Shown piece by piece: positions 1-36,378 of a stretch of DNA of 64,000 bases. Position numbers and translations under genes: made by a program. Position 1 is the stretch's first letter; each line of letters opens with the position of its first letter. This DNA comes from Candidatus Sumerlaeia bacterium (GTDB lineage: Bacteria; Sumerlaeota; Sumerlaeia; MVZB01): contig CAUZJO010000004.1 in the NCBI GenBank assembly GCA_963580245.1, positions 6,380 through 70,379 of the forward strand, read 5' to 3'. The notes beneath the pieces were generated by a model, which saw only the letters and a list, made by a program, of their open reading frames with translations, ran no database searches and was not told where the DNA came from.

Positions 1-559
1 GGCAGATGACCAGCGCCACCGAGCCGGCCAGGCCGTCCATGTTGTCGAGCAAATTAAAGGAATTCGTCAGCACAAGCACCCACAGGGCCGTGGCCAGCCA
101 TCCGATGGGGCCGGGAAGGAATCCGCGGATCGTGATGTCGGCGCCCACCAGGGGGACGACCGCGAGGAGCTGGACGGCCAGCTTGGTCTTCGGCCCCAGG
201 GGTCGCAGGTCGTCGGTCAAACCGAGCGCAAAGACCACCCCCGCGCCCCCAAGGACCGCCCATACCTGAACGCGGATGCCGGCGATGTTCTCGAGATACG
301 GCCCCAGCGCCGACAGACCGGCGGGCAAGCGCGAGGCAAGCGCATCCGCCCCGATCATCCCCCCGGCCACCAGCAATCCGAACGTGGCGAAGATGCCCCA
401 ACCGCCGGTCATCGCGATGGCCCGATCGTGCGCCTTGCGGCCCTCGGGCTGGTCGAGCAACCCCCAGATTCGCCCCAAGCGGCGGGCGACCGCGCACAGG
501 ACCGCCGACAGCGTCAAAGCGACGAGAAAAACGGCGATGTAGAGAACCAGCCAATGCAT
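1..559 (-). CDS. Glycosyltransferase family 4 (MraY/WecA-like UDP-sugar phospho-transferase), 3' end truncated by window edge
   Basis: Reverse-strand translation from ATG at 557-559 gives MHWLVLYIAVF...VLTNSFNLLDNMDGLAGSVALVIC. The NxxNxxDGxDGL motif and the multiple TM helices are typical of MraY/WecA. The ORF runs off the left edge. Confidence 0.72.
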   Translation of the reverse strand, partial: MHWLVLYIAVFLVALTLSAVLCAVARRLGRIWGLLDQPEGRKAHDRAIAMTGGWGIFATFGLLVAGGMIGADALASRLPAGLSALGPYLENIAGIRVQVWAVLGGAGVVFALGLTDDLRPLGPKTKLAVQLLAVVPLVGADITIRGFLPGPIGWLATALWVLVLTNSFNLLDNMDGLAGSVALVIC

Positions 560-1025
560 GGTATTGCGAGTTGGATGCTTTCAAGCTCACGGTGATCCCA
601 TAAACCCATGCAGCTTGACAAAACACCCCTTTGATGGCAAGCGCGACGCGGTTGAAAGGCAATGGGACGCAGATTTTACGGATTGGGCGGATTTTCACGG
701 ACCAAGCCCGGCGTCATGAAGCCAGCCAAAACGATCTCGCGCCATAATCAAGATGGGGACGACGATGAGGGCGAATACCTTAAAGGCACCTCTAAAAATT
801 CAGTCCCGGCAGGGACGATTGCTTTCAGCCCGCCACGCAAGTGGCGGGAAATCAAACCAATAAAGAATTGGAGTCCCATCGGGACGACCGCAAACCGGAT
901 TTTTAGAGGTTCCATTAAGCATGTTTAATAGATCTCAAACGCCAATGCGGCGGGTGCTGAGATTCTGAACAATCATTCCAGCCCAAACAAGACCATGCCT
1001 GAAATCCGCCGTGCCGATAGCTCGC

Positions 1026-2396
1026 TCAAGCAAACAGCTCGCTGATCTCCCCGAAGTCCATCGGTCCCTTCGGCGAGATGCTTTCGATATACTCAAACGC
1101 GCGGCCCGAGGGGGTTTGCGTGACTTTCTTGGTCCAGTCGATGCCCATCAGGGAATAGATCGTAATCAGGACGTCCTCGGGATAGATCGACCGTCCCTTA
1201 TGCCAGCCCGTCTCGGTGGGGTGGGCGCCGATTTCGTCGGTTGCGCCGATGACCTTTCCGCCTTGGACCCCCGCGCCGGCGAACACACCGACGCCGGCAT
1301 AGCGGTAGTGATCGCGCCCGCCGCCCATCGTCAATTCGCCCGGCGTGCGGCCGAATTCGCCCATGCAGGCGATGAAAACCCTGTCGATCAGGCGTTCTCC
1401 CTGGGCGTCTTTTCGCGACTCAAGGTCGTCGAGCAGGTTGGACAGGGCGGCGTCGAGTTGGCCGCACAATGAATATTGGCCGGCACCCGCGGCGTAGGCC
1501 CCGCCGTGCAGGTCCCAGCCTCCGTGCGAGATGAAGATGAATTTCGCCCCCGCATCGGCCTCAACCATATTGCGGGCCATGACGCAGGAGTCGCCCAAGC
1601 CCGTCGCGCCGTAACGCGCATGGTCCTCCGCTGGAACGCTGAAGACCGGCCCGGCCTTGGGGTTGTCGAGCATCGGGTAGGCCGACTGATAATAGGCGTC
1701 GATATCGCTGAATATCCGGCCCCGGTGCGGGTCCGTCTCGCGCCAGCCGCGGTCAAGCCTGCCGAGCAACTGCCGACGCCGTTGATAATCCCCTTTCTCG
1801 CTGTCGGAGAGGACAAAGGGCGGCGGCGAATCGCTGAACATCGCCATGGGGGCGTGCGCCGACGGCAACATGCCGGGCCCGACGAGCGAGGACGTATCCA
1901 TGTTCATCGCGACGAAGGGCGGGAGGAAGTCCGATGCCCGGCGCTGGTCCCGGGTTTCATAGGCGATCACCGAGCCGACCGATGGGATTTCCTGAAGTCT
2001 GGCCGGGCTGAGGATTCGCCCCGCCTGCAAGTAATAGGTGCCCCTTGCGTGCTCGGCCTCCCATGCCTCAAGCGAGCGGATGATGGCATACTTGTCGAGG
2101 CGTTTGGAAAGCTCCGGCATCAACCCCACCGGCATGCGGACGCCCGGCTTGACGGTCTGGATATCAAAATCCTCCGGCGTCCATTTGCCTTCCTTCACGT
2201 CGAAGGTGTCAAGCTGGCTGGGGCCGCCCTGTAGGAACAACAGGATGCAGACATCGGCCCCGCCGCGCATCTTGGCCGAGGATTTCGCCTCGACGTTGCT
2301 CGCCCTGAGGATCGGCGCGAGGGAGTAACCCAGGACGCTGACCCCGCCGATTCTCATAAAGTCTCTACGCGTCAGTCTCGGGATTTCAAGTGCCAT
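1026..2396 (-). CDS. DUF1501 domain protein (sulfatase-like fold, Tat signal), partner of the PSD1 protein
   Basis: 456 aa; N-terminal RRDFMRIGG Tat-type signal. The conserved DUF1501 body is typical of Planctomycetes/Verrucomicrobia. The DUF1553 gene lies immediately upstream on the same strand. TGA stop. Confidence 0.85.
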   Translation of the reverse strand: MALEIPRLTRRDFMRIGGVSVLGYSLAPILRASNVEAKSSAKMRGGADVCILLFLQGGPSQLDTFDVKEGKWTPEDFDIQTVKPGVRMPVGLMPELSKRLDKYAIIRSLEAWEAEHARGTYYLQAGRILSPARLQEIPSVGSVIAYETRDQRRASDFLPPFVAMNMDTSSLVGPGMLPSAHAPMAMFSDSPPPFVLSDSEKGDYQRRRQLLGRLDRGWRETDPHRGRIFSDIDAYYQSAYPMLDNPKAGPVFSVPAEDHARYGATGLGDSCVMARNMVEADAGAKFIFISHGGWDLHGGAYAAGAGQYSLCGQLDAALSNLLDDLESRKDAQGERLIDRVFIACMGEFGRTPGELTMGGGRDHYRYAGVGVFAGAGVQGGKVIGATDEIGAHPTETGWHKGRSIYPEDVLITIYSLMGIDWTKKVTQTPSGRAFEYIESISPKGPMDFGEISELFA

Positions 2397-2435
2397 GATC
2401 AGGGGCCCCCTTCCGAAGCTCCAGAGAAGAGAATA

Positions 2436-4769
2436 TCAGTAATTGACGATGAACTCCAGCTTATTGACCAGGGCCCATTGGAGGTCCTCCGCGCCCCGGT
2501 TGCGGTAGATTTCGATGTGTCGCATGCCCTCATTCAATTCCTCGGTCGTGGGGAAGCGCGCCAGCGTCGCCAGAAACAGTTCCTCGACGATCTCGACGTT
2601 CGTCTTGACCGGTTCTTTGTGCAGCAGTCTGTCGAGCGTGCTTCCCTCGGTGCCCGAGAGGATCTTCTTCTTCACCACGTCGCTGTTGAGCATCAGCGAG
2701 GCCTGGATGACCGAACTCTTGGTGTCGGCCTGTTTGGTCAGCCGGTTGCTCTGGCCGAAGAAATCCAGGAAGCGCTTCAGTTCCGCATCGGCCGGCGGCC
2801 CGCCGGTGGCCATGACGTATTCAATCCCATGCCCGAACACATTGGTCGCCTTGCAGAGCGCGTCATAGATCTCTTCGGCGGAAAGCCGCCGCGCCAGCTT
2901 CCGCGCGTAGTAACGATCATACTCCGGCTTGTATTCCCCCTCGAAGTGGGAGGATAGCTGATAGGCCTTCGATCGGCAAATCGCGCGCATCAGCAGGCGC
3001 AGATCGAAATTCACGCTTTGGAAATACTGGCCGAGGGCATCGAGGAGCTCCGGATGCGACGGCTGAATAGTCCAGGGCGGCGGAGGAGGATTCTCCGGAT
3101 CCTGACGCGCCAAGTCCCAGTTCAGGGGCGGGTCCACGATGCCGACGGTCATGAACCTGGACCAGATCAGGTTCGCCGTGGCCTTGGCGAACTGCGGATG
3201 CGTGGTGATCATCCGCGCATATTCCACCCGCCAATTCACTCCCTCCCGCGGCTGTTCCTTGGTCAGGATAAACTCGGGAAAAACATCGGCGGTCAGATCT
3301 CGCTTGGTGCGCAGGACGCTCGGGGCCTCCATGCGGTAACCCATGCCGCCCCAAATCGTGGGGGCCGACGTGAATTCGAAATGCTTGTTGAAGTCCTCCG
3401 GCGAGGCGATCTTGCCCTGCCAGATGTTCTCGGGACGCAGCGGCGGGCCGTCGAGCAACGTAAACGGATTACCCACCAACGTGCCCCGAATAATGCGAAG
3501 GTTGCCGAAAAACGCCGCCTGCCGCCAGAATTCGACCCGCTTTCTCTTCGAGAGCCACAGGTTGATGTCCTTGAGGTTTGGATAGCCGTCATGACAGGAG
3601 ATACATTCCAGGTTCACGCCGAGGAACGCCTTGGTCGTGTGAAGCCCGATTTCGTCGCAGGTATCCTCGTGCATGATGTCCGCGCACCGGATGCCGTCGA
3701 CCTGATGCCGCATCAGGTAGCCCGCCGATCCGGAAACCTCGCCCCCCAGCGCCGTTTCCGTCAACATCTGACGCACGACGTAATCATAAGGCAGATCGTA
3801 CAGGAGGCACAGCCGGATATACGTGCGGATAGAACCCGTGCGGTACAGGTCGCAGAAGAAATAGGTCCACTTGCTGAGGAACGGTTCCTCGACCAGCCAG
3901 GGGCCCTTGTAATCCTCGTTGCCCGGCTTATCCATGAAGTCCAGACCCAGCAGATGCTCGATCAACTCGTTGCGCTTTTCGGGGTCGGGGTCGGCCACGA
4001 ACTTGCGCACGGCATCAGCGTCGGGCAGGCGTCCCCACAGGTCCAGATAGATCCGGCGGATGAACTCATTGTCGCCGCAAAGCTCCGCATGCGGGATGTC
4101 GTCGCGGGTCATCTTCCCGAAGATGTGGTCATCGATGAAGTTTTCGGCGATCTCGACGACGGCCGGAGAAGAGGGGGGCGATTGCGCCGCGATCTGGTCG
4201 GTCAATTCCGTCGCCGCTTCGCGCTCCGACTCTTCGGTCAGGACGTGCATCTGTTGGGCCAGCATCTGGACGTAGACGGCGAGATCGGCGATCTGCTCGG
4301 GACTAAACTCGTCCTTTTGCGCTTTCATGGTCGTATCGGAAACGCCTTCGCGGATCGTCTTCTCGATCTCCGCCAGCGCGCCGCCATGGCGCCAAACCTT
4401 ATCCACCAGGTTCATGTTCGCATCGGCGGCGTTCCCATCGCTCTCGTGGCAGATCGAGCATTTGGATTCAAACGCCGCGGCGGCGAACTCCAATCTCTCA
4501 CCCGCTAGGGGGATTGCCTCCGCTTGCGCCTCCCGCGCCGGGTCCGCTGCTTCCGGTTCCGACGATTCGGCCTCGGCGGCTTCAGCCGGCGCATCGGACT
4601 CCGTGACTGCGATTTCGGGCTGATCGGCGTCGGGGGAAACTACGGATTCGCTATTGGCGGCATCCGCCGGTTCCGCCGCGGGCGTTCCGGGCGAACTCGC
4701 ACCGGCGCCGGCCATGCTTATGAGCAAACCCGTGAGGAGGGCAAGTGCCCTAAAATGAAAGACCTTCAT
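2436..4769 (-). CDS. PSD1 family protein (planctomycete cytochrome-c-like domain + DUF1549 + DUF1553)
   Basis: 777 aa with signal peptide. It has a CSICHESDGN heme-binding-like motif, a DUF1549 motif (ECISCHDGYPNLKDINLWLSKRK; RRIYLDLWGRLPDAD) and a DUF1553 C-terminus (FFGQSNRLTKQADTKSS). The gene pair is co-oriented with the DUF1501 gene. Confidence 0.85.
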   Translation of the reverse strand: MKVFHFRALALLTGLLISMAGAGASSPGTPAAEPADAANSESVVSPDADQPEIAVTESDAPAEAAEAESSEPEAADPAREAQAEAIPLAGERLEFAAAAFESKCSICHESDGNAADANMNLVDKVWRHGGALAEIEKTIREGVSDTTMKAQKDEFSPEQIADLAVYVQMLAQQMHVLTEESEREAATELTDQIAAQSPPSSPAVVEIAENFIDDHIFGKMTRDDIPHAELCGDNEFIRRIYLDLWGRLPDADAVRKFVADPDPEKRNELIEHLLGLDFMDKPGNEDYKGPWLVEEPFLSKWTYFFCDLYRTGSIRTYIRLCLLYDLPYDYVVRQMLTETALGGEVSGSAGYLMRHQVDGIRCADIMHEDTCDEIGLHTTKAFLGVNLECISCHDGYPNLKDINLWLSKRKRVEFWRQAAFFGNLRIIRGTLVGNPFTLLDGPPLRPENIWQGKIASPEDFNKHFEFTSAPTIWGGMGYRMEAPSVLRTKRDLTADVFPEFILTKEQPREGVNWRVEYARMITTHPQFAKATANLIWSRFMTVGIVDPPLNWDLARQDPENPPPPPWTIQPSHPELLDALGQYFQSVNFDLRLLMRAICRSKAYQLSSHFEGEYKPEYDRYYARKLARRLSAEEIYDALCKATNVFGHGIEYVMATGGPPADAELKRFLDFFGQSNRLTKQADTKSSVIQASLMLNSDVVKKKILSGTEGSTLDRLLHKEPVKTNVEIVEELFLATLARFPTTEELNEGMRHIEIYRNRGAEDLQWALVNKLEFIVNY

Positions 4770-4828
4770 ACTACATCGCCCGTGGTTTCATCCAGACCGA
4801 TCAACCCACCTACGCCATAAATCTGAGC

Positions 4829-4912
4829 AAATATCATGCCACTGATCGTGCGGCGGCGACAACGATCATTAAATATCATGCCACTGATCGTGCAGCGGGG
4901 GCAACGATTATT
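4829..4912. repeat. 42-bp tandem direct repeat x2 (about 88% identical) in the promoter region of the PSD1/DUF1501 operon
   Basis: The two copies are aaatatcatgccactgatcgtgcggcggcgacaacgatcatt and aaatatcatgccactgatcgtgcagcgggggcaacgattatt. They lie between the PSD1 start (4769) and the upstream gene's stop (4935). Confidence 0.8.
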
Positions 4913-4934
4913 TGACTCCGAAAAAGGCCAACCG

Positions 4935-5558
4935 TCAAGGATGCTTCGATAATCGTTCGAGGACCTTGGAGAGAAACGGGTGCCCGAAATTCAGTTGGAT
5001 CAGCTCGGCGATCCCCGGGTCCAGCGAGCGGTCGCGACGGGGCCGACGGCGGCGGTTGCAGGGGAAGTCGAAGGCGTCGTCTTGGATCGAGAGCACCCGC
5101 GGGCGGCCGTCGCCGAGCGCCAGCGGCCACAGGGCGCAACTGCGCGGTTTGGTGCGATAGGGGTCCAGCCCCAGCTCGAGCGCGGCCGTGTGCAGCGAAC
5201 AACGCGTCTCGCCCGATGCGTTGCGGTAGGCAAACACGCAGCGGCCATGTTCATCCGTATCGAGAACGATCTGCCGCGTTTCATCTTCCTCGAAGGGGTT
5301 GACCCAATCCTTGCCTTCGCGCAACCAGGACGCGTGTCGCGAGGCGTCTGGCATGCAACCGGTGATCCGTTCCATTTCCCGCCGACCCACCGTCACTTCG
5401 TAACTTGAACAACAGCAGCCCCGTTTCTTGCAACGTGCCGGATCGTAACGATGCGTGATCCGCACAAGGGCGCCCAAGTCGACGAGCAGGTTTTGGATGC
5501 GGGGGAGGGAGGTCGGGTTTCGGGTTTCGGGTCTCGGGTCTCGGGTGATAAAGCTCAA
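4935..5558 (-). CDS. Cysteine-cluster protein (YkgJ/DUF3109-like putative Zn/Fe-binding), start uncertain
   Basis: 207 aa ORF with a CKKRGCCC cluster plus further conserved Cys (CMPDASRH, CVFAY, CSLH). The N-terminus contains a (GGGTYTC)x5 nucleotide repeat encoding PETRNP-like repeats, so the true start may be downstream. Confidence 0.45.
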   Translation of the reverse strand: MSFITRDPRPETRNPTSLPRIQNLLVDLGALVRITHRYDPARCKKRGCCCSSYEVTVGRREMERITGCMPDASRHASWLREGKDWVNPFEEDETRQIVLDTDEHGRCVFAYRNASGETRCSLHTAALELGLDPYRTKPRSCALWPLALGDGRPRVLSIQDDAFDFPCNRRRRPRRDRSLDPGIAELIQLNFGHPFLSKVLERLSKHP

Positions 5559-5642
5559 AAAGTCTCTCCTCCCATCTACAGTCTGACCACATCATTCTCA
5601 CGAGACCCCCAAAACCCGAAAGGGAAACTCGATACCCGACTC

Positions 5643-6275
5643 TTACTTCTCCTCCCCCAAGCGGTCCTCATAGTGCTCAAACAACTTCTGGCGTTCAGCG
5701 GGCCCGAGCAATACTTCGGGGGTCATAAAAACGATCAGCTCACGCACCAGCTCCGAGGAATCCTCCTTGGTGCCGAAGAGCCAGCGCAGGCCCGGGATGC
5801 GGCCCAGAACGGGCGGGCGTCGTTTAATGTCCACCTTGGTATCGATCAGGATGCCGCCGATGACCATCGTCTCGTCGTCATCGATCGCCAGTTTCGTTTC
5901 AAACTCGGTGTTGTCGGTCACGATCTGATCGTTGATGATCACGCCCTCGCGCACGCGGCTGTTCTCCAGGATCATCTGCAGCATGACCTGATTGTCGACG
6001 TTGATCGTCGGTTTGACCAGCAACGTCAGTCCGACCGGCCTATATTGGATTTGGGTCGTCTGTCCCGCGGTATCGGTTTGGTTGCCGGCCTCGAAGGCAA
6101 TCTCCGAGCCGACGACCAGCCTGCCCTGTTCATTGTTGTTGAGTGCCGGGAACGGTTCGGAAACCACCCGCGAGTTGGTGTTCTTGAGCAAAAGCTGCAC
6201 GAGTAGCGCCACGTTAACGTTGGCCCCGAGCACGACGTTGCCGGCCCGCGTCGTCGTTTCGGCGGTTCGGATCAC
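5643..6275 (-). pseudogene. Secretin C-terminal domain fragment (GspD/PilQ family) lacking signal peptide and N-domains, abutting gspE 3' end
   Basis: The translation carries hallmark secretin-domain motifs: RVVSEPFPALNNNEQGRLVVGSEIAF, PVLGRIPGLRWLFG and ELIVFMTPEV. There is no ATG (the ORF track uses GTG at 6275). The same frame stays open up to 6419 and overlaps the gspE stop. The product is far too short for a functional secretin (about 210-260 aa versus more than 500). Confidence 0.6.
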
Positions 6276-6390
6276 CTCGCCCGCTTCTCGAGTGCTGATG
6301 ACGTCGGTCGGGCTGCGTGAGCTGGGTCCGAAGCTCTCGATGAAGCCCAGGTTGGACAGGCCCAGGATTGCGTTGTCGAGTTCGGCCGGG

Positions 6391-7984
6391 TCAATTGAAT
6401 TGGGATCGGGCGTGCAGAATCATGTCGTGCAGCTTCTCGTGCATCGTGAGCAGCTCGAAGATGCCCACCCGGCCCCGGTAGCCGCGCTCCAGACATTCCT
6501 CGCAGCCGTCCGGCTCGAAGACCCGCTCAGGCAAGTCGGTCACGTCGAACTGCCTGGCCAGGATCGGGTCGGGCGCCGCCGGCGCGCGGCACGAGGCGCA
6601 CAAACGCCGCACCAGGCGCTGCGCAAGCACGCCTTGGATCGACGAGGCGATCAAAAAGGGCTCGACGCCCATATCCAGCAGCCGTGTCACCGCCCCCGGC
6701 GCATCGTTGGGGTGGAGCGTCGAGAAGACCAAGTGGCCGGTCAGCGCGGCGCGGATGGCGATATCGGCCGTCTCGCGGTCCCGAACCTCGCCGACCATGA
6801 TGATGTCGGGGGCCTGGCGGACGATCGCGCGCAGGCCGTGGGCGAAATCGAGCCCGCGCCGCGGCCGCACCGGGATCTGGGTGATCCCGGCGATCTGATA
6901 CTCGACGGGAACCTCGATCGTGATGATTTTCTTCTCGGGCGTGTAAATCTAGATCAGGCTGCCGTAGAGGGTGGTCGTCTTCCCGCTGCCGGTGGGGCCG
7001 CAGATCAGCAAGTCCCGTACGACCGGTGCAACAGCGATGAATAGCGCTCGCGGATCGATTCCTCCATGCCCAGGTGGGTCAGATTGAGCAGTGACTCGTC
7101 CTTGTTGAGCAGGCGCAGCACCACGCTCTCGCCATGGATGGTCGGCACGGTCGCCACGCGCACGTCGACGCGCTCACCGAGCAGGTTGACGCAGAACTGG
7201 CCGTCCTGCGGGACGTAGCGCTCGGCGATGTCCATCCCGGCCATGATCTTGACGCGTGAGATGATCGCGGACTGGAGGTGCTTGGGGGGGCGGCATCTCG
7301 TGCAGGATGCCGTCGATGCGGTATTTGATCTTGAGCTGGGCCTCGAACGGCTCGATGTGAATGTCGCTGGCACGTTGCTCGATGGCGTTGGAGACGATCA
7401 TGTTGACCAGGTTGATCAACGTCGGCTCGCGCGCCATCTCTTGGAGGTCGTGCAGGTAGATTTCCTGGTCGCCGCCGGCCTCGCCCTCGATCTTCTCCAT
7501 GCCCTCGATCATGCTCTCGACCGTGACTCCGTAGAGTTCTTGCAGGTAATGGGCGAAGTCGCTTTCGCGCGCGACGGCGAGTCGCACGGGCCGGCCCGCC
7601 AGGAATTCGAGCTCGGCGCGCACCTCGGCGGCCAGCGGGCCGGTCGCGACGCAGCGCAGATAGCCATTCTCGCCGGCCTGAGGCAGGACGCGGCTGGCCT
7701 GGGCCAGCGAGGCCGGGATCAGGTCCTTCAGCGTGGGGGCGGGGGGGCTCGGTGAGGTCCCAGAGGGGGACGTCGGCCTGGACCGCCAGTGCCTGGGCCA
7801 GTTGGTCCTCATTGATGAAATTCAGCGAGCGCATCACGGCGCCCACAAGGGGCCGGGGTTGGGCGTGGGCCTGGACGTCAAGACAGTGATCCAGCCGCTC
7901 TTGGCTGATCAGACCATTTCCCGCGAGCCAGGCGCCCAGTAACTTCTTAGCCACGATGTTCCCTTTTGGAGCCTCGATGATCAA
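6391..7984 (-). pseudogene. gspE: Type II secretion / type IV pilus assembly ATPase (GspE/PilB family), disrupted
   Basis: GspE motifs are spread over three reading frames: an N-terminal domain, RASDIHIEPFEAQLKIKYRIDGIL, VKIMAGMDIAERYVPQDGQF, the Walker A box [43 protein letters not shown] and [11 protein letters not shown]. Both frame changes coincide with G7 homopolymers (about 7284-7290 and 7741-7747). An in-frame TAG (6950-6952) follows the Walker A box. Confidence 0.8.
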
Positions 7985-8685
7985 AGCTCCTCGGCCTCAA
8001 ATAATGCGCCGAATCCTCCACGCGACAGCGACCCGCTAGCGGCGGGAGTCAGATGGAATGTTTTGCGACAACGACGACTTCCATCGCAACATCTTCAGGA
8101 GGTAGCCTCGGTTTCCGCTAAAACCGGACTTGGAACGTTCGCGATTTGGTTTGGATCGGGTGTCATGCTATCCATGATGTCCGATGATGGTCGTCCGTGT
8201 CACCCTAATCTTCAGAGTTCCCGTCCTCGCGTCCTCGGAATCGAGCCGAAGGGCCCCGAGATGGCCGGGCATCGGCGGTCATTTCTCCCGATCCCCTGGA
8301 CTTCCCCACGGGCCGACACACCTCCGACATCCGTTGCGGCAGACTCCCTCTGATGCTTGGACGCAGGAGTTATCGAAAAGTTTCACATAAAATCAAACGT
8401 TGCGTGGCACTGTTGAGCCTAGCGCGCCAGCCCCGGACTAATTCTCTTGCATCCTCGCGGCTCGATGCGGATAAACTGAAACGATTGAGCACGGTTTGGC
8501 GCCAGTCCAACCCGTTATCGGAGTGATTGAACAGCACCGTGCCGTAGGGCGGGCACGGGGGACTCACGCGCGCGTCACGGGAATTCGTGTCGGCGAACGG
8601 GTGGCCCTCCTCGGCCAGAGCTGGATTCCGCGGCTCGGCGTCGCCAATTGGGAACTCTATTCATCACGGACGAAAAAGGGCGACG

Positions 8686-10911
8686 ATGGCCCGGGCGAAG
8701 AAATCCACCGGTAACACGACCCCCTCCTCCCCGTCGGACGCCATGCCGCCAGGCGCCCAGGTCTCGCCGGGGGCGGATTTTCCCCTCAGGCTGGAGCTAT
8801 TGTTGAGGGACCCGCCCGGCCCGGCCGGCGTGGACCCATTCGTGGTGCTGAACGATGGGGGGGAGCACGCGCGCGTTTACCTGGGCCGGATCCTGGCCGG
8901 CCAGCGGACCGTGCTGCGCCACGTGGCTGTCAAACTGGCTCCGCGCCGAGGTCAGGCGTCCGGGATCGAAGGCCAAACCCTGAGCAACGCCCAGCGGCTG
9001 AGGCGCTGGGAACGCGAGTGGAAGCATTATCGCGCGATGGCCGAGGTGCCGGCCGGGGTGACGCCGGTCTATTTCATCCAGCCGGGCCAGGCACTGGCCG
9101 GCTCCGAGCCGCGTCCGCTGATCTGGCCGCCGCTCATCTTCTGCGCTCTCACCCGGTCGCTGCTCCAACCACGTTCGCGCCAGGGGGGACGGCTGAGCGT
9201 TTGCCGCGACGATTCCGTCCTGACCCAAAACGGCCTGCCGCCCCACGGAGGATCGTATACGTTCCTCTGGGACGCCGAGGCGGTTGCGGCGGGCGAGGCG
9301 CCCACGTTTTACCAAATCCCGGCCCCCGGAGCCGAGCAGACCGTCGGCCCGGCCGAGCCATTCGACGCCTGCCTGCGCGCGACCGCCGAGCTGCTGGCCA
9401 ATCCGGGCGAGCTGGTCGCTCGCGGCTCGGACGGGGGGCTGGCCCACATCGTCGAGATCGCCCGCGACTTCCCGGCCATCCTGGACGAGGAGGTGCGTAA
9501 GAAGCTGGTCGCGGAGGACCCGGTCAAGGTATTCAGCCCTTGGCACCTGGACGAGACGCCCGTGCTGGTTTTGGAGCTTAACCGCTTCCACTACGATGAA
9601 TTCTGCGACCTGCTTGGGGGAATCGAGGGCAAGACCTTCGCCACGCGTTACGGCGGTCCAAAAGCGGCCGTCGGCCAGCGCTTGCGTTTGGGCGACAGTC
9701 TGAACGGCGAGGGGTCTTCGCCCCGGCTCCTGTTCTCCGCCGACAGCACGGGGTTGGACGCGGTCGAGCGGTTCCGCCTCAAGTGGTCGCTGTTCTCCCA
9801 ACTCTGCGGCGCGACGCTGGTGTATCAGCGCCGTTGCGGCGCCCCACATCTACGCCTCTCGCCCCGCCACGTCATGGTCCAGGTCGAGCCGAGCGGCGAG
9901 GGGCTGCCCTCGTTATGGAACTTCCAGACCCGATTGATCAGCCTGGGGTCGCCGACGCTCGAAGTCGAGGGGATGGACCTGCCCGAGATCTTCGTCCCGC
10001 CGCTGGGCACCGACCCGCTCTATCAGGCCGAATTGGTGCGCAACAGTTCGTTCGGCATTGCCCAGCGCGGCGATTTCCTGCTCACGGGCGTCGAGAAAAG
10101 CAAAGCCGAGGGCCGCTCCGAGGTCGTCGCGCAAATCCATCACGAAGGCATCGGGCTGCGCTGGCTCAGCCCCAAAGACCACATGCTGGTAACGCTGGGC
10201 AAGCATCTGGTCGCCGAAGCCGAGATCGAATTCATGGCCCACTGCGATGAGAGCAAGGATTACTCGGGCCGGATCATCTATCTGAAGAGCCTCCCCCTGG
10301 AGCTGGACAAAGACAAGGTGGCGGCGCTGGAAAAGTTGAAGGGGATTCGAGTGCCCAACGCCCAGTTCCGCCTGCTGCCCACGATGCACGTCCCATGCGA
10401 TCTGTTTAGCCTGGGGATGCTGCTTTACCGCGCGATGATCGTCAACGACGGCCAGGGGATCGGCGAGGTCGCCCTGGCGCTCGACGGGCTGCGTCAGGAC
10501 CTCAATTCACTGGCGGTGGTTGAATGCGTGGAAGGCCAGGAAGCCTCCTTCTGGGAAGCCTTGCTCAGTGGCCACCGCAATCTGGACGCGGCCACGATCT
10601 TTGACCGCCCTCAGATATTCTTCCACGAACATCAGCGCGCCCCGGACCGGCCCAACGCCATCCCCAAGTGCCTGTGGCACGAGGTCATGGCGCTGGGTCT
10701 GAAGCTGGTCACGCTCAACGAGGATTTTAGTTTCTGCGCCAATCACGGTGACTACGATCCGGAGTATCCCTCGGCGCGACTGGAGCCGCTGACCCGGCGC
10801 GTGGCGGAGATGGGCCGCAAGATCGACACCGCCTTGTTCTCATTCACCGCCCGCAACGCCGAGATCCGCCAGGCCCTCGAGCATGTCGCGCCGGAGATGA
10901 CGATCTCGTGA
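8686..10911 (+). CDS. Large uncharacterised protein with degenerate protein-kinase-like catalytic motifs (candidate pseudokinase), translationally coupled to fha
   Basis: Start taken at MARAKK (8686); the ORF is open from 8587 (GTG). Residues ~400-500 align to the kinase catalytic core but with catalytic residues substituted: HLRLSPRHVMV for HRDLKPENILV, NFQ for DFG, and SFGIAQRGDFLLTG for DxWSxGxxxYELLTG. A second similar block at ~520-615 reads GIGLRWLSPKDHMLV ... DLFSLGMLLYRAM. The stop overlaps the fha ATG (TGATG). Confidence 0.55.
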   Translation: MARAKKSTGNTTPSSPSDAMPPGAQVSPGADFPLRLELLLRDPPGPAGVDPFVVLNDGGEHARVYLGRILAGQRTVLRHVAVKLAPRRGQASGIEGQTLSNAQRLRRWEREWKHYRAMAEVPAGVTPVYFIQPGQALAGSEPRPLIWPPLIFCALTRSLLQPRSRQGGRLSVCRDDSVLTQNGLPPHGGSYTFLWDAEAVAAGEAPTFYQIPAPGAEQTVGPAEPFDACLRATAELLANPGELVARGSDGGLAHIVEIARDFPAILDEEVRKKLVAEDPVKVFSPWHLDETPVLVLELNRFHYDEFCDLLGGIEGKTFATRYGGPKAAVGQRLRLGDSLNGEGSSPRLLFSADSTGLDAVERFRLKWSLFSQLCGATLVYQRRCGAPHLRLSPRHVMVQVEPSGEGLPSLWNFQTRLISLGSPTLEVEGMDLPEIFVPPLGTDPLYQAELVRNSSFGIAQRGDFLLTGVEKSKAEGRSEVVAQIHHEGIGLRWLSPKDHMLVTLGKHLVAEAEIEFMAHCDESKDYSGRIIYLKSLPLELDKDKVAALEKLKGIRVPNAQFRLLPTMHVPCDLFSLGMLLYRAMIVNDGQGIGEVALALDGLRQDLNSLAVVECVEGQEASFWEALLSGHRNLDAATIFDRPQIFFHEHQRAPDRPNAIPKCLWHEVMALGLKLVTLNEDFSFCANHGDYDPEYPSARLEPLTRRVAEMGRKIDTALFSFTARNAEIRQALEHVAPEMTIS

Positions 10912-12773
10912 TGGCCGCGAAAAAAGCTACTCCCCTGATCTGTCTGGAGGTCATCGCCGGGCCGCTCGACGGTCTGCGCTACGAGGGCAAGCAGGGCATC
11001 GTCCAGATCGGGCGCTCCGATGGGACCGGCTCCGATAAAAAGCGCAACGACCTTGTCCTCCAGCGCGACTCCTATGCCTCGAGCTTCCATGGGAGGGTCT
11101 CCCACGCCGACGGCCAGTGGACGCTGAAAGACCTCAACAGCACCAACGGCACGTGGGCGGCCGGTCGCAAGCTGGCCAAGGGGGAGCAAACCACGTTGGT
11201 CGCAGGCGAGGTCTTCGTGGTGGGGAACACGGCGATCCGCCTGGGGACCAAGTCCTCGGGTCTGCCGCCGGTCGACCCGACGGCCTCGGCGGGATTATCG
11301 CCGGCCACCCAGACCATGCTCAATCGGGCCAGGAACGTTGCCCGCGAGCAGCTAAGCCCGTGGATCGGTGCCTCGCACGTCTTTCGGGTCATCGCCGGCT
11401 CCGACGCCCCGCCGCTGCCCGAATTCTTCCAGTCCGTCCATCTGGACTCGGCGGCGACGGCCGACATTATCACTGAATTCGATTACTGGCAAGGCGAGCT
11501 GGAATGGATCGGCAGCAACGTGCTGCGCGGCAGGCGCACACCCGAACACATGCTCAAGAACGTCCTGTCGACGCCCCGACTGCAATTGATCCTGACCCTG
11601 GCCGACCGCGTTCGCGAGAGGGCTTCGGCGCCCCACGTCGAGCCGATCCACCTGCTGGCCGGTATGTTTCTGGAACCCGGCAATATCGTGGTCCTGGCGC
11701 TGTCGGCGGCGGGTTACTCGGCCGACCAGCTCGCCGCCGCGGCCAAAAAGATCATCCAGGGCGAGGAGGAGCCGGATGAAGAGGAGGATCGGGCGCCCGA
11801 GCGCGAGGCGACCGTGCAGGTGCAGTTGCCGATGCCCGCCGCGGTCAAGCAGCGCGAGGCGGTCGATCCGGAGACGTGGCTCCTTGCGCGCCAAATGATG
11901 GACCGGCTGCAGTCGGTTCAAAACGAGTATCACATGGCCGAGCCCGAGGCGCGCTTCGAAGCGATCTGCAAGGCCGCGCGAGAGGGCCTGCAGAAGGCCC
12001 CGCCCGCCAAGCGCCTGGCGATCGTCGACGAACTCCATTATCTCTTCCCCGTGCTCGAAGAAGCCCTGGCGCCTCCTCCCTCGATCTTCGCGGAGGCGCC
12101 CAAGGAGGCTCCGGTCGGGCCGGCGGAAACGACCGACAGCCACCCGGAGCCCGATAACATGCCCGACATGGCCGCGGCGAGTGACGAGCTGGAAACGGGC
12201 GTGGACACCGATTATCTGCTCAATCAGATCTTCGGCAGCGAGAAGATCGCCCAGTCGATCAGCGAGATGGACGAGAGGAACAGCTTTCTGCGGCTGATGC
12301 AGCACCTTTATACGTTCGCGTTGGAGATGGAGCAGCTCGCCAAGGGGCTGGTCCAGTCGTTGCAGGGCGGCGCCGGGGGCGAATCGCGCTACTTCCTGCC
12401 CTTCACGGCCCACGATCTGCGCATGATGGTGCAGAAGATACTGGAGGATAAAGACGAGAGGGAGACGGTGGGAAATATCCGCCTCTACCTCTATGATCTG
12501 AGCAACTGGATCGTGGCGCTGGTGGCGGCCCACCAGAAGGCCACCAGCCAGTGGTACGGGGAGCTGTGGGAGCGCATCAGCCCGTTGGCGATCCAGGACG
12601 AGGCCAAAATCTCCTCACTCAACAAAGCCCTGGGCCAGAGCAAGGCGGAGCTGTGGAAGACCTATGAGCAGGTGGCCGTGGACCTCAAACCCGAGATCGT
12701 CGAGGACGAGTTCAACGAACGGATCGGCAAGCTGGTCACCGAGGAGTTCCGCCGCATGAGCTCTCGCGGCTGA
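10911..12773 (+). CDS. fha: FHA domain protein (T6SS Fha/TagH-like) with Clp_N-like repeats
   Basis: N-terminal FHA domain signature: GRSDG...NDLVLQRDSYASSFHGRVSHADGQWTLKDLNSTNGTWAAGRKL. Two Clp-N-like repeats follow (IGASHVFRVIAG; HVEPIHLLAGMFLEPGNIVVLALSAAGYS). The gene sits immediately upstream of tssJ-tssK-tssL-tssM, as fha1 does in P. aeruginosa H1-T6SS. Confidence 0.8.
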   Translation: MAAKKATPLICLEVIAGPLDGLRYEGKQGIVQIGRSDGTGSDKKRNDLVLQRDSYASSFHGRVSHADGQWTLKDLNSTNGTWAAGRKLAKGEQTTLVAGEVFVVGNTAIRLGTKSSGLPPVDPTASAGLSPATQTMLNRARNVAREQLSPWIGASHVFRVIAGSDAPPLPEFFQSVHLDSAATADIITEFDYWQGELEWIGSNVLRGRRTPEHMLKNVLSTPRLQLILTLADRVRERASAPHVEPIHLLAGMFLEPGNIVVLALSAAGYSADQLAAAAKKIIQGEEEPDEEEDRAPEREATVQVQLPMPAAVKQREAVDPETWLLARQMMDRLQSVQNEYHMAEPEARFEAICKAAREGLQKAPPAKRLAIVDELHYLFPVLEEALAPPPSIFAEAPKEAPVGPAETTDSHPEPDNMPDMAAASDELETGVDTDYLLNQIFGSEKIAQSISEMDERNSFLRLMQHLYTFALEMEQLAKGLVQSLQGGAGGESRYFLPFTAHDLRMMVQKILEDKDERETVGNIRLYLYDLSNWIVALVAAHQKATSQWYGELWERISPLAIQDEAKISSLNKALGQSKAELWKTYEQVAVDLKPEIVEDEFNERIGKLVTEEFRRMSSRG

Positions 12774-12965
12774 GGGCGGGCGACATTTCCATGGTTGGCG
12801 TTTTTCGCAACCCGTATATTTTAACGGGGAGAGGGAAATGCGGGCTAAAAAGGGACACTGGCGTTGTTGATCCTGATTACGAATAATGGCGGGCGTTGAA
12901 CAGGCGCGAGTTCCGCCCCCCCCAGGCGCGTGGACTCGGGGGCCAAGACCCACCGGGAGGATGGC

Positions 12966-13499
12966 ATGATGAAGCGGCACGTTTGTCTTTTGTTGGCACT
13001 GGCCTTGACCGCGGCCGGCTGCAAGAGCGTTCCGATCAAGACGCGTGAAATCCTCTTTTATCGGTCCGATGACCTCAATGACGGCCGTCCCTGCGCCGTC
13101 GATATCATCTATCCGAGAGACTACGAGCAGTTTCAGGAGATCACGCGCGAGATCGGCCCCGAGAAATGGTTCAAGAGCGACCTCTATGATCGCGTGTATA
13201 AAGACGATCCCTGGCTGGAGCGCAAGATGACCCGTGCGCGGCTCGATGTGAAGGTGCCCGAGGATGAATACATGGTCATCTTCGCCGAGTTCAGTAATCC
13301 CGACCCCAATCCCCCGCGTGGGCATCGCGCCTACCTGGTCTATGAGGAAGAAATGCAGCCCAAGGCCAAGAAAACCGAATACATCTGGGTCCACGATGGC
13401 AGTCTGGAGCGGCTGCGCAAAAAGCCCAAGCGGATGCGGCGCGACCGGGACCGTGACCGGAGGGGCCGGGATCGGGATAGCGACCGGGACAAGGATTGA
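12966..13499 (+). CDS. tssJ: T6SS outer-membrane lipoprotein TssJ (SciN family) with RD-repeat C-terminal tail
   Basis: Lipobox LLLALALTAAGC. DLNDGRPCAVDIIYPRDYEQF matches the TssJ/SciN core (LNPDxNGRPxPVxVRxYxL). Small size and the position before tssK are consistent. The C-terminal tail is RRDRDRDRRGRDRDSDRDKD. Confidence 0.65.
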   Translation: MMKRHVCLLLALALTAAGCKSVPIKTREILFYRSDDLNDGRPCAVDIIYPRDYEQFQEITREIGPEKWFKSDLYDRVYKDDPWLERKMTRARLDVKVPEDEYMVIFAEFSNPDPNPPRGHRAYLVYEEEMQPKAKKTEYIWVHDGSLERLRKKPKRMRRDRDRDRRGRDRDSDRDKD

Positions 13500-13665
13500 T
13501 CGGCCCAACCCCTGGGCCGTTAACGGAGAATTCTTCGTACTCGTAACTCGTAACTCGTAATCGAACATTCTCGATCATCGAGAGAAGAACGGAACATCGA
13601 TTACGAATTACGAGCACGAGCACGAAGGTGAGCATGAGAGTAGGGGACTTGAGGTAAGGCGGACG

Positions 13666-15033
13666 ATGAGCGAGTTCATGGAGATCAACTGGGGCGAGGG
13701 GATGTTTTTGCGGCCCCACCACTTGCAGCAATTCAGCCGCTATCGGCGGATCGCGTTGCAGCGCGAGATCGCCATGTCGCGGCCCTTCGCTTACGGCGTC
13801 CAGGAGATCAACATCTCGACGGCCGAACTCGAGGGTTTCGTCTTCTCGATCCGCTCGTGCAATATCCGGCTCAAGGACGGCACGCGCATCATGGCGCCGC
13901 ACAACGGCGAGTTCGAGCCGCGTGATTTCAAAAAGGAATTGGACGCGGCCGCCGGCGTGCTCGACGTCTGCGTCGGCGTGCCGCTGCTGATGGAACGCGA
14001 ACCCAACACGCTAACGATGTCCGAGGAGTCCACCCTCTATCACCGCCGCTACAAGGCGATGGTCGTCGAAGTGGTCGACGAGAACACCGGAGCCAACGGC
14101 CAGGCCATCGAGATGCGCAAGTTGAGCCCGCGCATTTTGTTCAAGGGCGAGGACATGGCCGGCTATGAGGTGATGCAAGTCGCCCGCATCGAGCGTTCGG
14201 GGTTCGAGGACAACAAACCGATCCTCTCGCAAAACTTCATCCCATCGATCCTGGTCATGGAAGCCTGGCCGCCGCTGTTCGATTACTGCAAGGACATCTA
14301 CCAGCAACTGATGGCCAAGAACCGCTCGCTGATCAGTCAGATCGCGGGGCGCAAGATCGCGTTCGGTTCGGAGGGGGTCGGCGGCCCCGAGGCGATGCTC
14401 AAGCTCAACATCACCAACCGCTACGCCGCCTTCCTGCGCCAATGGACGAGCATGCCCAACCTGCATCCGTTCGACGTGTTCGTCGAGCTGTGCCGCCTGG
14501 CGGGGGACCTGGCAATCTTTGATGAATCGCGCTCGGTGCCCGATATCCCGCTCTATAACCACGACGACCTGGGCGGCTCGTATCTCGACCTGCTGCGCGT
14601 CCTTGAGCGACTGATCAACAACATCCTGCCGACCACGTTCATCAAGCGGCGCTTCGAGCCCGTCGAGAACCGTCGCGAGGTGGCCCTGGAGGACGAATGG
14701 CTGCTGCCCGAAGTCGAGTTCTACCTGTGCATCGAGAGCGATCAGGACGACGACAAGATCGACCGGGAAGTCTCGTTCCTGAAGATGGGTTCGGTCGAGG
14801 ACCTGCCCACGCTGATCAACCGCCGCCTACCGGGGTTGATGCTGCGCCGGATTCGGCGCACCCCGATCGGCTTGCCCGACCGGCCCAATTACCACTTCTA
14901 CCGTATCTCGCGCGAGGGCCGGTTCTGGGACAGCTTGCTCGAGACCAGAGTGCTCTCGGCCTATGGCCTGGCCGACGAAACGCTCGAACTGGACCTGTAT
15001 ATCTTGCTTAGACCGGAGAAGGAGGGGGAATGA
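13666..15033 (+). CDS. tssK: T6SS baseplate subunit TssK
   Basis: N-terminus INWGEGMFLRPHHLQQFSRY matches the TssK hallmark (WxEGxFLxPQHFQQ). The length (455 aa) and the position between tssJ and tssL also fit. Confidence 0.85.
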   Translation: MSEFMEINWGEGMFLRPHHLQQFSRYRRIALQREIAMSRPFAYGVQEINISTAELEGFVFSIRSCNIRLKDGTRIMAPHNGEFEPRDFKKELDAAAGVLDVCVGVPLLMEREPNTLTMSEESTLYHRRYKAMVVEVVDENTGANGQAIEMRKLSPRILFKGEDMAGYEVMQVARIERSGFEDNKPILSQNFIPSILVMEAWPPLFDYCKDIYQQLMAKNRSLISQIAGRKIAFGSEGVGGPEAMLKLNITNRYAAFLRQWTSMPNLHPFDVFVELCRLAGDLAIFDESRSVPDIPLYNHDDLGGSYLDLLRVLERLINNILPTTFIKRRFEPVENRREVALEDEWLLPEVEFYLCIESDQDDDKIDREVSFLKMGSVEDLPTLINRRLPGLMLRRIRRTPIGLPDRPNYHFYRISREGRFWDSLLETRVLSAYGLADETLELDLYILLRPEKEGE

Positions 15034-15181
15034 CGGGGCAATCGGCCACCGCCGCCCATCCCCGGAACCCCGTCGTGAAACATATCGTGCTCGTAACTCG
15101 TAATCGAAATCCCGGTCATGCTCCAATGCTTGAGACCGTCCCATTACGAATTACGACCACCGACCGGCCAGGGGTGATTCG

Positions 15182-16084
15182 ATGACGCTGAATGAATTGG
15201 CCTCGGACCTGTTCCTGTTTCTGGTCACGTTCCGCCGCCAGGTCCGCAAAGGCCTGATCCCCGACATCTATCAGGTCCGCTCGCAACTGCTCGAGATCTT
15301 CGAGACCCAGCAGCAGCGCGCAAGCGAGGATCCCAAACTCGAAAAGCAATACCAAAAGGGGCGCTATCCGTTGGTGGTGACCGCCGATGAGATACTGATC
15401 AACGCCAACTGGGCCTATTCCAGTCAGTGGGAGGACGAGATCCTCGAGTACGAGTTCTTCAAGACGCGCATCGCCGGCGAGAAGTTCTTCGAGACCATCG
15501 AAGAACTCGGGGACGAAGACGACTCGGTCGCTGAAATCCTCTATCACTGCCTGGCGCTGGGTTTCGTGGGGCGTTACAAGGGGGACGCCGAGGAACTTCG
15601 CCGGCTCAAGCGCCGCCTGTATCGGATGCTCCCCGGACGCGTGGGCGAGGACGATAAACGCATCTCGCCCGACGCCTATTTCGTCGCCGAGGGGGTCAAG
15701 GACATCTACAAACCACTGATGAACCTGACCCGCATCGTGCTCATCTGCGGGACGCTCCTCATCGTCTTGTGGATCGGGTTCTTCTATTACCGCACCTTCG
15801 TCATCCCGAGTAAGATCAAGGAATTCGCCAAGGAGATGCGCCAGGCCGCCGCCCCCGGCGGATACGTCCTGGATGACGATGATGAAAACGAAGAGGAGGA
15901 GGATGAAGACGAGGACGAGGCGGATGATTTCTTCGCGCTCAAGGACGAACAGGATGAGGATGAGGACGAAGAATCCTCGGAAAACGATGACGACGCCGAT
16001 GACGTGAGTTCCGATGAAGACGATGACGGCGAAGACGAGGACGAAGACGAAGACAAGGACGAGTTGGGTGATTTGTTTGGTTAG
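15182..16084 (+). CDS. tssL: T6SS membrane protein TssL (DotU/IcmH family) with hyper-acidic periplasmic tail
   Basis: DotU core LYHCLALGFVGRYKG, a single TM (IVLICGTLLIVLWIGFFYY), then a ~95 aa D/E-rich tail. TAG stop. Confidence 0.75.
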   Translation: MTLNELASDLFLFLVTFRRQVRKGLIPDIYQVRSQLLEIFETQQQRASEDPKLEKQYQKGRYPLVVTADEILINANWAYSSQWEDEILEYEFFKTRIAGEKFFETIEELGDEDDSVAEILYHCLALGFVGRYKGDAEELRRLKRRLYRMLPGRVGEDDKRISPDAYFVAEGVKDIYKPLMNLTRIVLICGTLLIVLWIGFFYYRTFVIPSKIKEFAKEMRQAAAPGGYVLDDDDENEEEEDEDEDEADDFFALKDEQDEDEDEESSENDDDADDVSSDEDDDGEDEDEDEDKDELGDLFG

Positions 16085-16185
16085 AACCTCATCGCCGAAC
16101 GCATCGCCCGTGCTTGGGGCGTGTTGAACAGTTGGGTATGAATGTCGTGAGGCTGAAAATTGGATCGATCGGGGTGTAAACGGAA

Positions 16186-20388: not shown

Positions 20389-20503
20389 CGGGGAAGAAGC
20401 TATGGGCATTGATGGGTATTGAAAATTTGAAACGATCAATGAACCCATCAAGGTTGAATCCCCGCGCCGTGCGGCTACATTAACGTCACGAAAGCAAACG
20501 CCG

Positions 20504-21475
20504 ATGGGAATGTTTCAAAGCCTTAAGGACCGGTTCTTTTCGCGGCACGACGGGGCGATCGAGGACTTTGTGCTGGCCGCCTATGGCAAATTGCCGATCT
20601 ATAAGGACTATATTATCTGGGAATGTTACCACGGCGGGGCGGCGGAGTTTAAACAGTGGATGGATGAGACGTTCGGGTTGCAATGGGAAGAGTTCGACGG
20701 CAAGAACGCGCGCTTGGCCGGCCCCTGCCGCGCGATGCTGCTGATGCCCGGGGGGCGCAACGTCGTGGCCGTCTCGATGTGGCCATCGGCCGATGAGGGC
20801 AACATGCGCAAGTTCCCGTTCGCGCTGTTCGCGTGCTTCAATCGCGGCGAGATCGTCGGACTCGGTCTGCGCGGCGCGCTCGAGGCCCTCGATCCGGTCT
20901 GGCGGGCGCTCGAGGCCGAGTATGACCAGGTGCGCCACTGCGCCAATATCGAGGACCTCTATAGTTATTTCCAACGCTCGGCTCCCCAGGCCGAGCCGCC
21001 CGCCGAGGACCCCGCCGAAAAGGAACTGCCCCTGGCCGATTGGTTCGAGGCCATCTATCCCGGCCAGGCGGGCACCCTGCGCAAGTGGCTTGACAGCGAA
21101 CTTCAGATGGCCCTGGACGCGTACCGCGGGTTCCCCGAACAGGGCGAGTCGCTCGCCGCGCGCCTCCCGATCGCGCGCGACCTGAGCTTCTCCCGACAGG
21201 CCGAGTTCTGGGAACAGCTCTTCAAGCAAAACCTCAAGCGCTGCCCCGCCATCCCCAGCGTGGTGATTGACCTAAGCGGCCAAGACGGCCCCGCCGCGAT
21301 GAACCTGGCGTGGCGCGACCTCAAGCGCGAAGACGGTCGCCTGTTCGCCATGAAGTACGAAGACTACGAGCACCTTGAAAACCTCACTCCCGACGCCCCT
21401 CCGCGCGGCTCGGGCGAGGATATCGACCCCGACCTGACGATCGAAAAGTGGATCGCCGGCTTCGCGGAGCCGTAA
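20504..21475 (+). CDS. tagF: T6SS-associated protein TagF-like (DUF2094)
   Basis: N-terminal AAYGKLPIYKDYI resembles the TagF GFFGKLPxxGDF motif. It directly follows tssM, as in tssM-tagF arrangements. Confidence 0.55.
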   Translation: MGMFQSLKDRFFSRHDGAIEDFVLAAYGKLPIYKDYIIWECYHGGAAEFKQWMDETFGLQWEEFDGKNARLAGPCRAMLLMPGGRNVVAVSMWPSADEGNMRKFPFALFACFNRGEIVGLGLRGALEALDPVWRALEAEYDQVRHCANIEDLYSYFQRSAPQAEPPAEDPAEKELPLADWFEAIYPGQAGTLRKWLDSELQMALDAYRGFPEQGESLAARLPIARDLSFSRQAEFWEQLFKQNLKRCPAIPSVVIDLSGQDGPAAMNLAWRDLKREDGRLFAMKYEDYEHLENLTPDAPPRGSGEDIDPDLTIEKWIAGFAEP

Positions 21476-34308: not shown

Positions 34309-34466
34309 TCCGGCGATCTTCTTTCCGAGGCCCCCTCCCCCGCGTCGCGGAGTCCAGATACGAATCAACCCCGGCGAAGTCGAAGGATCACCCCCACCGA
34401 CTCCACTGGGGTTGAAATTTTGACCGCGAACGAATTCCCGACCGAATCCAATCGCCCGAGATCGAT

Positions 34467-34952
34467 TCAGATCAGCCCGGCCAACTCGACGGCCCGCAGG
34501 GCCCGCTTCCAAGCCCTCCGCAAATGAACGATGGCCTCGTCGTAATTTTCCGCGACGACATCTTCTTCAGCTAAGGCCCTTTCCGCCTCGGCCTGGAAAA
34601 TCTTGCTCAAGACCTGCCCACATCCCGTGGGTGGCGTCGCGTCGTTGCATCCCGCGTTGCTCGCCGCGGTCTGCGCCGCTTGAATCGCCGTGTCGACAAT
34701 TCTCCTGTCGGCTTCGATCAGCAACAAGACCGCCTCGCGAACCGCCGCCTTGTCCTCATCGCTCGTCCCGGCGTCTTGCAGGACCGCCATCAACTCCTCC
34801 GCAGCCCGCCGCTCGCGACGGAACACCTTGATGCCATTGGTCTCGTTCGGGGTGAAATCGTCAATGTAGAGTTCCGACAGTAAACTGCGCGCAACAAACC
34901 GAATCGCTTCCAGAATCTTCTCATCCACCAACGCGTTGCCAGACGGCACGCG
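34467..34952 (-). CDS. Small hypothetical helical protein (start unresolved; ORF overlaps 3' end of the FG-GAP gene)
   Basis: A protein-like reading frame is open 34467-35156. Internal ATGs lie at 34790 and 35069. It overlaps the FG-GAP stop (34954) by up to 200 nt. Confidence 0.35.
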   Translation of the reverse strand, partial: RVPSGNALVDEKILEAIRFVARSLLSELYIDDFTPNETNGIKVFRRERRAAEELMAVLQDAGTSDEDKAAVREAVLLLIEADRRIVDTAIQAAQTAASNAGCNDATPPTGCGQVLSKIFQAEAERALAEEDVVAENYDEAIVHLRRAWKRALRAVELAGLI

Positions 34953-34953
34953 A

Positions 34954-36350: not shown

Positions 36351-36378
36351 TCGGTGCCGCAATGAATCTACGAATCTC

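Follow-up and report, generated by a model that had tools for sequence, protein, structure and literature searches.

The window analyzed here, a 64,000-nucleotide stretch of DNA from a Candidatus Sumerlaeota genome, contains the remnants of two genes of a type II secretion system (T2SS), namely, gspE, which encodes the secretion ATPase, and gspD, which encodes the secretin. The best named relatives of the UvrB protein, at 70 to 82% identity, all come from Candidatus Sumerlaeota/Sumerlaeia, which identifies the source as a metagenome-assembled genome of the Sumerlaeota (BRC1). Both remnants are carried on the minus strand throughout, with the gspE remnant running from 7984 to 6409 and the gspD remnant following it. 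An earlier note on this DNA had described a decayed GspE-type ATPase joined to a headless secretin fragment, and a three-frame translation of positions 8060 to 5600, together with Pfam matches, confirmed that description. The lesions were defined base by base against gspE of contig L001, which encodes an intact protein that is 94% identical; L011 is the contig with an intact gspD, and L010 is a contig from a sister strain. The features are listed below in coding order.

7748..7984, minus strand: gspE remnant segment 1, from the TTG start (7984-7982) through the N-terminal region to ...WDLTE; aligns with L001 gspE from the start codon.
7741..7747, minus strand: lesion 1, a frameshifting 2-bp deletion (CA in L001) directly 5' of a C7 tract (G7 on the plus strand).
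7291..7740, minus strand: gspE remnant segment 2, with the MshEN domain and the start of the T2SSE domain.
7284..7290, minus strand: lesion 2, a frameshifting 2-bp deletion in Pro-Pro-Pro-Pro codons (CCG CCG CCC CCC to CCG CC--C CCC) that leaves a C7 tract.
7013..7283, minus strand: gspE remnant segment 3, including the R266C codon (TGC, 7193-7191).
7012..7013, minus strand: lesion 3, a 1-bp deletion (ATC to A-C; GGGAT[A/C]TTG to GGGA-CTTG) just upstream of Walker A; missing from L010.
6409..7011, minus strand: gspE remnant segment 4, with an intact Walker A, the D360V codon (GTT, 6912-6910), the D393A codon (6813-6811), the T427P codon (6711-6709), and the tetracysteine motif.
6949..6951, minus strand: lesion 4, a nonsense TAG; CAG (Gln) in L001; common to L010.
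6409..6417, minus strand: deletion junction, the 9-nt CTGCACGCC, which aligns to both gspE (L001, CTGCACGCC) and gspD (L011, CTGGACGCC).
6391..6393, minus strand: TGA that ends the gspE frame, five codons past the junction and in gspD-derived sequence.
5643..6413, minus strand: gspD remnant, codons 717 to 972 of a 972-codon secretin, with no internal stop or frameshift.

After frame correction, the ATPase matched T2SSE (PF00437) with an E value of 6e-121 over profile positions 6 to 333 of 370 and, at the N terminus, MshEN (PF05157) with an E value of 1e-11, the T2SSE plus MshEN/N1E-type domain architecture. In common with GspE (PF00437/TIGR02533), the remnant thus shows an MshEN-type N-domain and an overall T2SSE domain, and it keeps the Walker A sequence GPTGSGKT and the tetracysteine motif, both of which are invariant in an alignment with 17 relatives. 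However, a single continuous open reading frame (ORF) of approximately 560 to 575 amino acids, as in relatives with 552 to 574, is not present. The frame that begins at the TTG changes at approximately 7747, 7290, and 7012, it contains one TAG, and the last 47 codons are deleted. Changes in tract length alone do not restore it. The earlier note had placed two frameshifts at G7 runs at 7284 to 7290 and 7741 to 7747; these positions were exact and the frame does change at each, both changes proving to be 2-bp deletions relative to the intact orthologue, but the third frameshift at 7012/7013 had been missed. At lesion 1, L001 reads GAG CAC CCC CCC GAC where the window reads GAG--C CCC CCC GCC. 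The two deletions in the poly-C (Pro-Pro) tracts likely arose by slipped-strand mispairing. Over a 5.1-kb alignment with L001 there were seven indels, consisting of the three gspE frameshifts and four intergenic events, with none in the 2.8 kb of neighboring coding sequence. Three frameshifting indels in the 1.58 kb of gspE, against none in the flanking coding sequence, is a clustering far beyond chance.

The note had also held that all GspE motifs were present, which is correct for Walker A and the tetracysteine motif but not for three others. The Asp box reads EVPVE rather than EDPVE, the sequence before Walker B reads RQAPD rather than RQDPD, and the His box reads STLHPND rather than STLHTND. 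The corresponding replacements, D360V, D393A, and T427P, fall in columns where all 16 outgroups and the intact orthologue from L001 have one and the same residue, and the window alone has Val, Ala, or Pro at these positions in the 17-relative alignment. A further replacement, R266C, is at a column where Arg is conserved in 13 of the 16 outgroups. The in-frame TAG does exist, but it replaces a variable Gln rather than a conserved residue, and its coding-strand codon is 6951-6949; the reading as 6950 to 6952 came from the plus strand of the palindrome TCTAGA. A reading of TAG as a sense codon was rejected, since TAG ends 4 of the 34 ORFs in the window, as under the standard genetic code, and L001 has CAG at the site.

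The gspD remnant is in a different frame from gspE, open from 6419 to 5643, and within it gene callers predict an ORF of 210 amino acids (6275 to 5643) from a GTG start at 6275. The earlier note had read this part as the last 40 or so gspE codons shifting frame once more and running into the secretin. That was not the case: the final 47 gspE codons are gone, the gspE frame stops at the TGA at 6393-6391, and the gspD frame is separate. In common with GspD (PF00263/TIGR02517), the remnant has a complete C-terminal Secretin domain (PF00263, E = 9.1e-32, positions 3 to 168 of 169), and it is 94.5% identical to the tail of the 972-amino-acid orthologue in L011. It differs from a functional GspD in that the signal peptide, N0, the Secretin_N (N1-N3) repeats, and the first 716 residues are all missing. 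The note was right on this point, as the piece starts at residue 717 of the 972 in L011 GspD.

Comparison with the intact locus in relatives, which the note had proposed, was informative on both sides of the junction. Contig L001 (ENA ERZ23495206, MIZU16-1 scaffold_10199) encodes an intact GspE of 574 amino acids, P0001, whose best NCBIfam match is TIGR02533 (GspE) at 596 bits, just under the equivalog cut-off of 630. In L001, gspE is followed by gspF, gspG, gspH, and further pseudopilin genes, and it is preceded, divergently, by the same genes that flank gspE in the window, one for a protein of about 741 to 742 amino acids and one for an FHA protein. Contig L011 (scaffold_9120), reached via cluster look-ups of the downstream genes, comes from the same MIZU16-1 metagenome. 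Its 972-amino-acid GspD has N0 (PF21305), Secretin_N (PF03958), and Secretin (PF00263) domains and passes the TIGR02517 cut-off (394.6 bits versus 351.35), and immediately downstream of the gene come the DUF3109, PSD1/PSCyt, and DUF1501 genes that also follow the gspD remnant in the window. On the basis of equal divergence and synteny, the two contigs probably derive from one genome. A more distant relative (L002-L004), with a 68%-identical GspE, carries the operon in full, with gspE-F-G followed by three small pseudopilin-like genes, then gspK, a PilN/GspL-like gene, two further small genes, and finally a gspD of 1008 amino acids.

The window matches L001 positions 1 to 5100 over 11511 to 6409 (93.2% identity), after which the match stops, and it matches L011 positions 4196 to 8778 over 6417 to 1832 (92.1% identity). 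Because homology to gspE of L001 ends at 6409 and homology to gspD of L011 begins at 6417, with the same flanks on both contigs, the interior of the operon has been deleted. The missing segment comprises 3026 nt of L001 and 4199 nt of L011, with a gap of about 3.5 kb between them as estimated from the L002 operon, for a total of approximately 10 to 11 kb. Indeed, gspF, gspG, the minor pseudopilin genes H to K, and the L/M/C platform genes are absent between the two remnants, and the window ORFs that were scanned had no Pfam family of the gspF to M/C type, although such genes are present in L001, L011, and L002. The one other gene of T2SS or type IV pilus type that turned up in this search for remaining gsp and pil genes was a second, intact secretin of 914 amino acids on the minus strand at 43461 to 46205, which has Secretin_N and Secretin domains and lies among genes for RuvC, YebC, a helicase, and ribosomal protein S1. 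We considered whether the gspD fragment could be a recent duplicate of this gene. The second secretin is not its source because the two are only 30% identical, over 117 amino acids only.

The deletion proposed in the earlier note, which would have collapsed a locus running from gspE to gspD and left a relic T2SS, is therefore borne out by relatives that retain both sides intact between the same flanks. The ancestral operon would have had the order gspE-F-G-H-I-J-K-L-(M/C-like)-gspD and would have been placed between a type VI secretion system (T6SS)-like cluster and the DUF3109/PSD1/DUF1501 block. A single deletion of about 10 to 11 kb would have taken the last 47 gspE codons, all the genes between, and the first 716 gspD codons. 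Its endpoints would lie in two 9-nt direct repeats, CTGCACGCC of gspE and CTGGACGCC of gspD, with the crossover within ACGCC. The repeats are imperfect, agreeing at 8 of 9 nt, CTG(C/G)ACGCC, with ACGCC as an exact 5-nt core. These features suggest microhomology-mediated illegitimate recombination or replication slippage as the mechanism.

With a metagenome assembly as the source, we had to weigh whether the locus might be an artefact, that is, homopolymer miscalls plus a chimeric gspE-gspD join with the real operon intact. Two of the frameshifts are at 7-nt G/C runs, which is what such an explanation would have, and the evidence available came from assemblies rather than reads. The observations from other assemblies point the other way. 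The exact gspE fragment ORF of 159 amino acids was found on four contigs: the source contig (L007, ENA ERZ27247711, 79,709 bp) with a near-duplicate entry, a Logan contig from SRR9039920 (L008), and a contig of ENA assembly ERZ27247714 (L009). Over lesions 2 to 4 and the junction, L007, L008, and L009 do not differ from the window (100% identity), so that lesion 2 is also seen in L009. More telling is L010, a contig of 1287 bp from another JGI metagenome (3300032820), which is 98.3% identical to the window. It has the same junction, the TAG, and D360V, with its own single-nucleotide differences on both sides of the junction, but ATC at 7012/7013 is complete in it, residues 393 and 427 are still Asp and Thr, and it has acquired its own nonsense change (CGA to TGA) in the gspD remnant at approximately window position 6290. 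Neither a misassembly nor a read error would be passed on to a strain that has diverged. Moreover, the tract lesions are 2-bp events, the third indel is outside a homopolymer, and there are a nonsense codon and motif-destroying substitutions besides. A junction microhomology of 5 to 9 nt is far below the assembler k (k141 in the contig names). A systematic homopolymer error of the assembly was rejected as well: other runs of at least 7 in the window leave their ORFs unbroken, about 49 kb of other window ORFs are uninterrupted, and the flanking coding sequence has no indels relative to L001. We consider an artefact extremely unlikely. The note had called the gene a true pseudogene on the grounds of its several lesions, and this is reproduced in the other assemblies, with some of the lesions common to the diverged strain; the opposite outcome, in which corrected reads would restore one continuous ORF, is ruled out as far as assemblies can show.

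The sister strain also gives an order to the events. The deletion, the TAG, and D360V predate the split of the strains because they are common to L010. L010 does not have the 1-bp deletion, D393A, or T427P, which places these after the split, in the window lineage. After loss of the machine, the leftover pieces would have evolved almost neutrally. The gspE stump would then have gained the CAG-to-TAG change and the Asp-box D360V, and the window lineage alone would later have gained the 1-bp deletion, D393A, and T427P. The substitution pattern has also changed in time. In the three-way comparison of the window, L010, and the intact relative, there were 9 changes on the window branch and 13 on the L010 branch. 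The ratio of nonsynonymous to synonymous changes (N:S) since the window/L010 split was 14:7, while the branch to the intact relative had 13:30 (Fisher p = 0.0076, from small counts). When replacements in GspE were polarized with the outgroups, 14 were derived on the window side, five of them at invariant or near-invariant columns, while the 9 derived on the P0001 side included none at an invariant column. Both the N:S shift and the restriction of invariant-residue replacements to the window side are the pattern of selection relaxed after inactivation. Omega relative to the intact relative was still low (gspE, 0.145; gspD remnant, 0.217; neighboring genes, 0.10 to 0.27). Inactivation therefore came after most of the divergence had accumulated, which makes the loss recent on the scale of a dS of approximately 0.11 to 0.17. 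The relic is thus recently formed, and its decay is ongoing.

Poly-G/C tracts are classic switches of contingency loci, and two of the frame changes in gspE coincide with such tracts. A functional gene could on this account be recovered by slippage at the tracts, acting as phase-variation switches or programmed frameshifts, together with read-through of the TAG. A fully corrected frame would still be without the C-terminal 47 residues, however, and would still carry Val, Ala, and Pro at the three residues that are otherwise invariant. The third frameshift lies outside the tracts, TAG is a normal stop in the window, the partner genes gspF to gspL are deleted, and the substitution pattern is now near neutral. 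Recoding or phase variation therefore has a negligible probability in our estimation. No strain spanning the poly-C tracts was found besides the source.

The secretin fragment called for separate consideration, as one could propose that only gspE is dead and that the headless C-domain ORF (210 to 259 amino acids, 6419 or 6275 to 5643) has been kept, possibly expressed as a stand-alone protein with a new role. In the window, it has no stop or frameshift over 777 nt, its Secretin domain is complete, and the gene callers of several pipelines predict the 210-amino-acid ORF. In addition, the TGA in L010 is upstream of the GTG at 6275, and the 210-amino-acid ORF is intact there as far as the 1287-bp contig reaches. 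By the known route, a secretin needs its signal peptide and N-domains to arrive at the outer membrane and assemble there, and this fragment has neither. The N:S of the fragment since the strain split was 10:7, with radical changes that included L88P, a Val-to-Phe, and a Ser-to-Phe. Zero disruptions in 0.77 kb would not be unlikely given the density of disruptions in gspE (Poisson probability of about 0.1). A protein search with the fragment at E ≤ 1e-10 among 5.8 billion proteins returned only the fragment itself. On balance, a retained stand-alone secretin domain is very unlikely. Searches of contig collections were less informative. The fragment and an exact 26-nt junction pattern had no match in a metagenome contig collection, where not even the source contig was returned; that collection evidently does not include these samples, and these nulls carry no information on the frequency of the deletion allele. 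A genome contig collection made up of species representatives, the source metagenome-assembled genome (MAG) not among them, gave distant secretins only, with 35% identity for L005 and 47% for L006, which is cut by the contig end. L005 (positions 1583 to 11356 of Candidatus Sumerlaeota MAG contig JAPLSS010000316.1) has an unusually long ORF of 3257 amino acids with a T2SS-type secretin domain at its C terminus.

In light of these comparisons, the locus is very probably a non-functional relic of a T2SS operon left by an internal deletion. It would be non-functional because gspE no longer has a continuous ORF, GspE has replacements at three invariant residues and has lost its C terminus, the GspD signal peptide and N-domains are gone, and all partner genes are absent; any activity of the products would have been lost with them. 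Each standard of a pseudogene that could be applied to the locus gave the same answer, including disabling lesions relative to an intact orthologue at a syntenic position, and neither remnant qualifies as a functional GspE or GspD. Several points weigh against this reading. L001 and L011 were assembled as two contigs from one metagenome and only probably belong to the same genome. L007, L008, and L009 may come from overlapping read sets, and L010, at 1287 bp, does not extend to lesions 1 and 2 or R266C. The support is from assemblies and not from reads, so that the homopolymer lengths are those of the assembled contigs and a minor intact allele may exist in the population. Finally, the window shows no disabling lesion in the gspD remnant, whose N:S since the split leaves, taken alone, room for some constraint.

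The kind of event is ordinary operon decay and gene loss, here well documented, and not a new type of system. Bacterial secretion loci that decay by internal deletion plus frameshift and nonsense changes are known. The present case is like them in having several independent disabling lesions, a large microhomology deletion, and a near-neutral shift in substitutions, and it differs in coming from an uncultured member of the Sumerlaeota and in that a sister strain and an intact relative reveal the order of decay. It is thus a small, clear example of that order, with the microhomology deletion first and near-neutral nonsense, missense, and frameshift lesions following. In public assemblies, three gspE pieces and a 210-amino-acid "secretin" are called as separate genes; each should be annotated as a pseudogene fragment, and none of them should be taken to mean that this Sumerlaeota lineage has a T2SS. 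The loss is recent and lineage specific, while close relatives keep the T2SS, and this bears on any exoenzyme secretion inferred for these organisms. We found nothing relevant in the literature on Sumerlaeota and type II secretion.

Upstream of gspE, the relic adjoins a T6SS-like gene set at window positions 8686 to 21475, made up of the following ORFs.

8686-10911: ORF of 741 amino acids without a Pfam or NCBIfam match.
10908-12773: FHA protein.
12900-13499: ORF without a family.
13666-15033: TssK.
15134-16084: DotU/TssL.
16186-20388: IcmF/TssM.
20423-21475: TagF.

Pfam and NCBIfam scans of the 64-kb window showed no sheath, Hcp, VgrG, or ClpV genes. Scans of the 5.3- to 8.7-kb region for promoters, terminators, and tandem repeats gave nothing relevant to the reading of the locus as a relic. 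The intergenic region upstream of gspE is the least conserved part of the alignment with L001, at 88.6%, and it contains an 8-bp tandem duplication (CGTCCTCG twice) at 8222 to 8237 that is single copy in L001. On the other side, a GGGTTTC-type spacer at 5606 to 5640 follows the gspD stop, net 30 nt shorter than in L011, and is related to a heptamer array (TCGGGTC, 4.9 copies) at 5513 to 5546 in the 5' end of the DUF3109-like ORF. Farther along, the acidic N-terminal region of the PSCyt/PSD1 protein has a 33-nt in-frame insertion relative to L011, at approximately 4519 to 4551. A low-GC stretch at 34300 to 36400 (0.51, compared with approximately 0.62 elsewhere), which includes an FG-GAP-repeat ORF on the minus strand at 34954 to 36087, may have been horizontally acquired.

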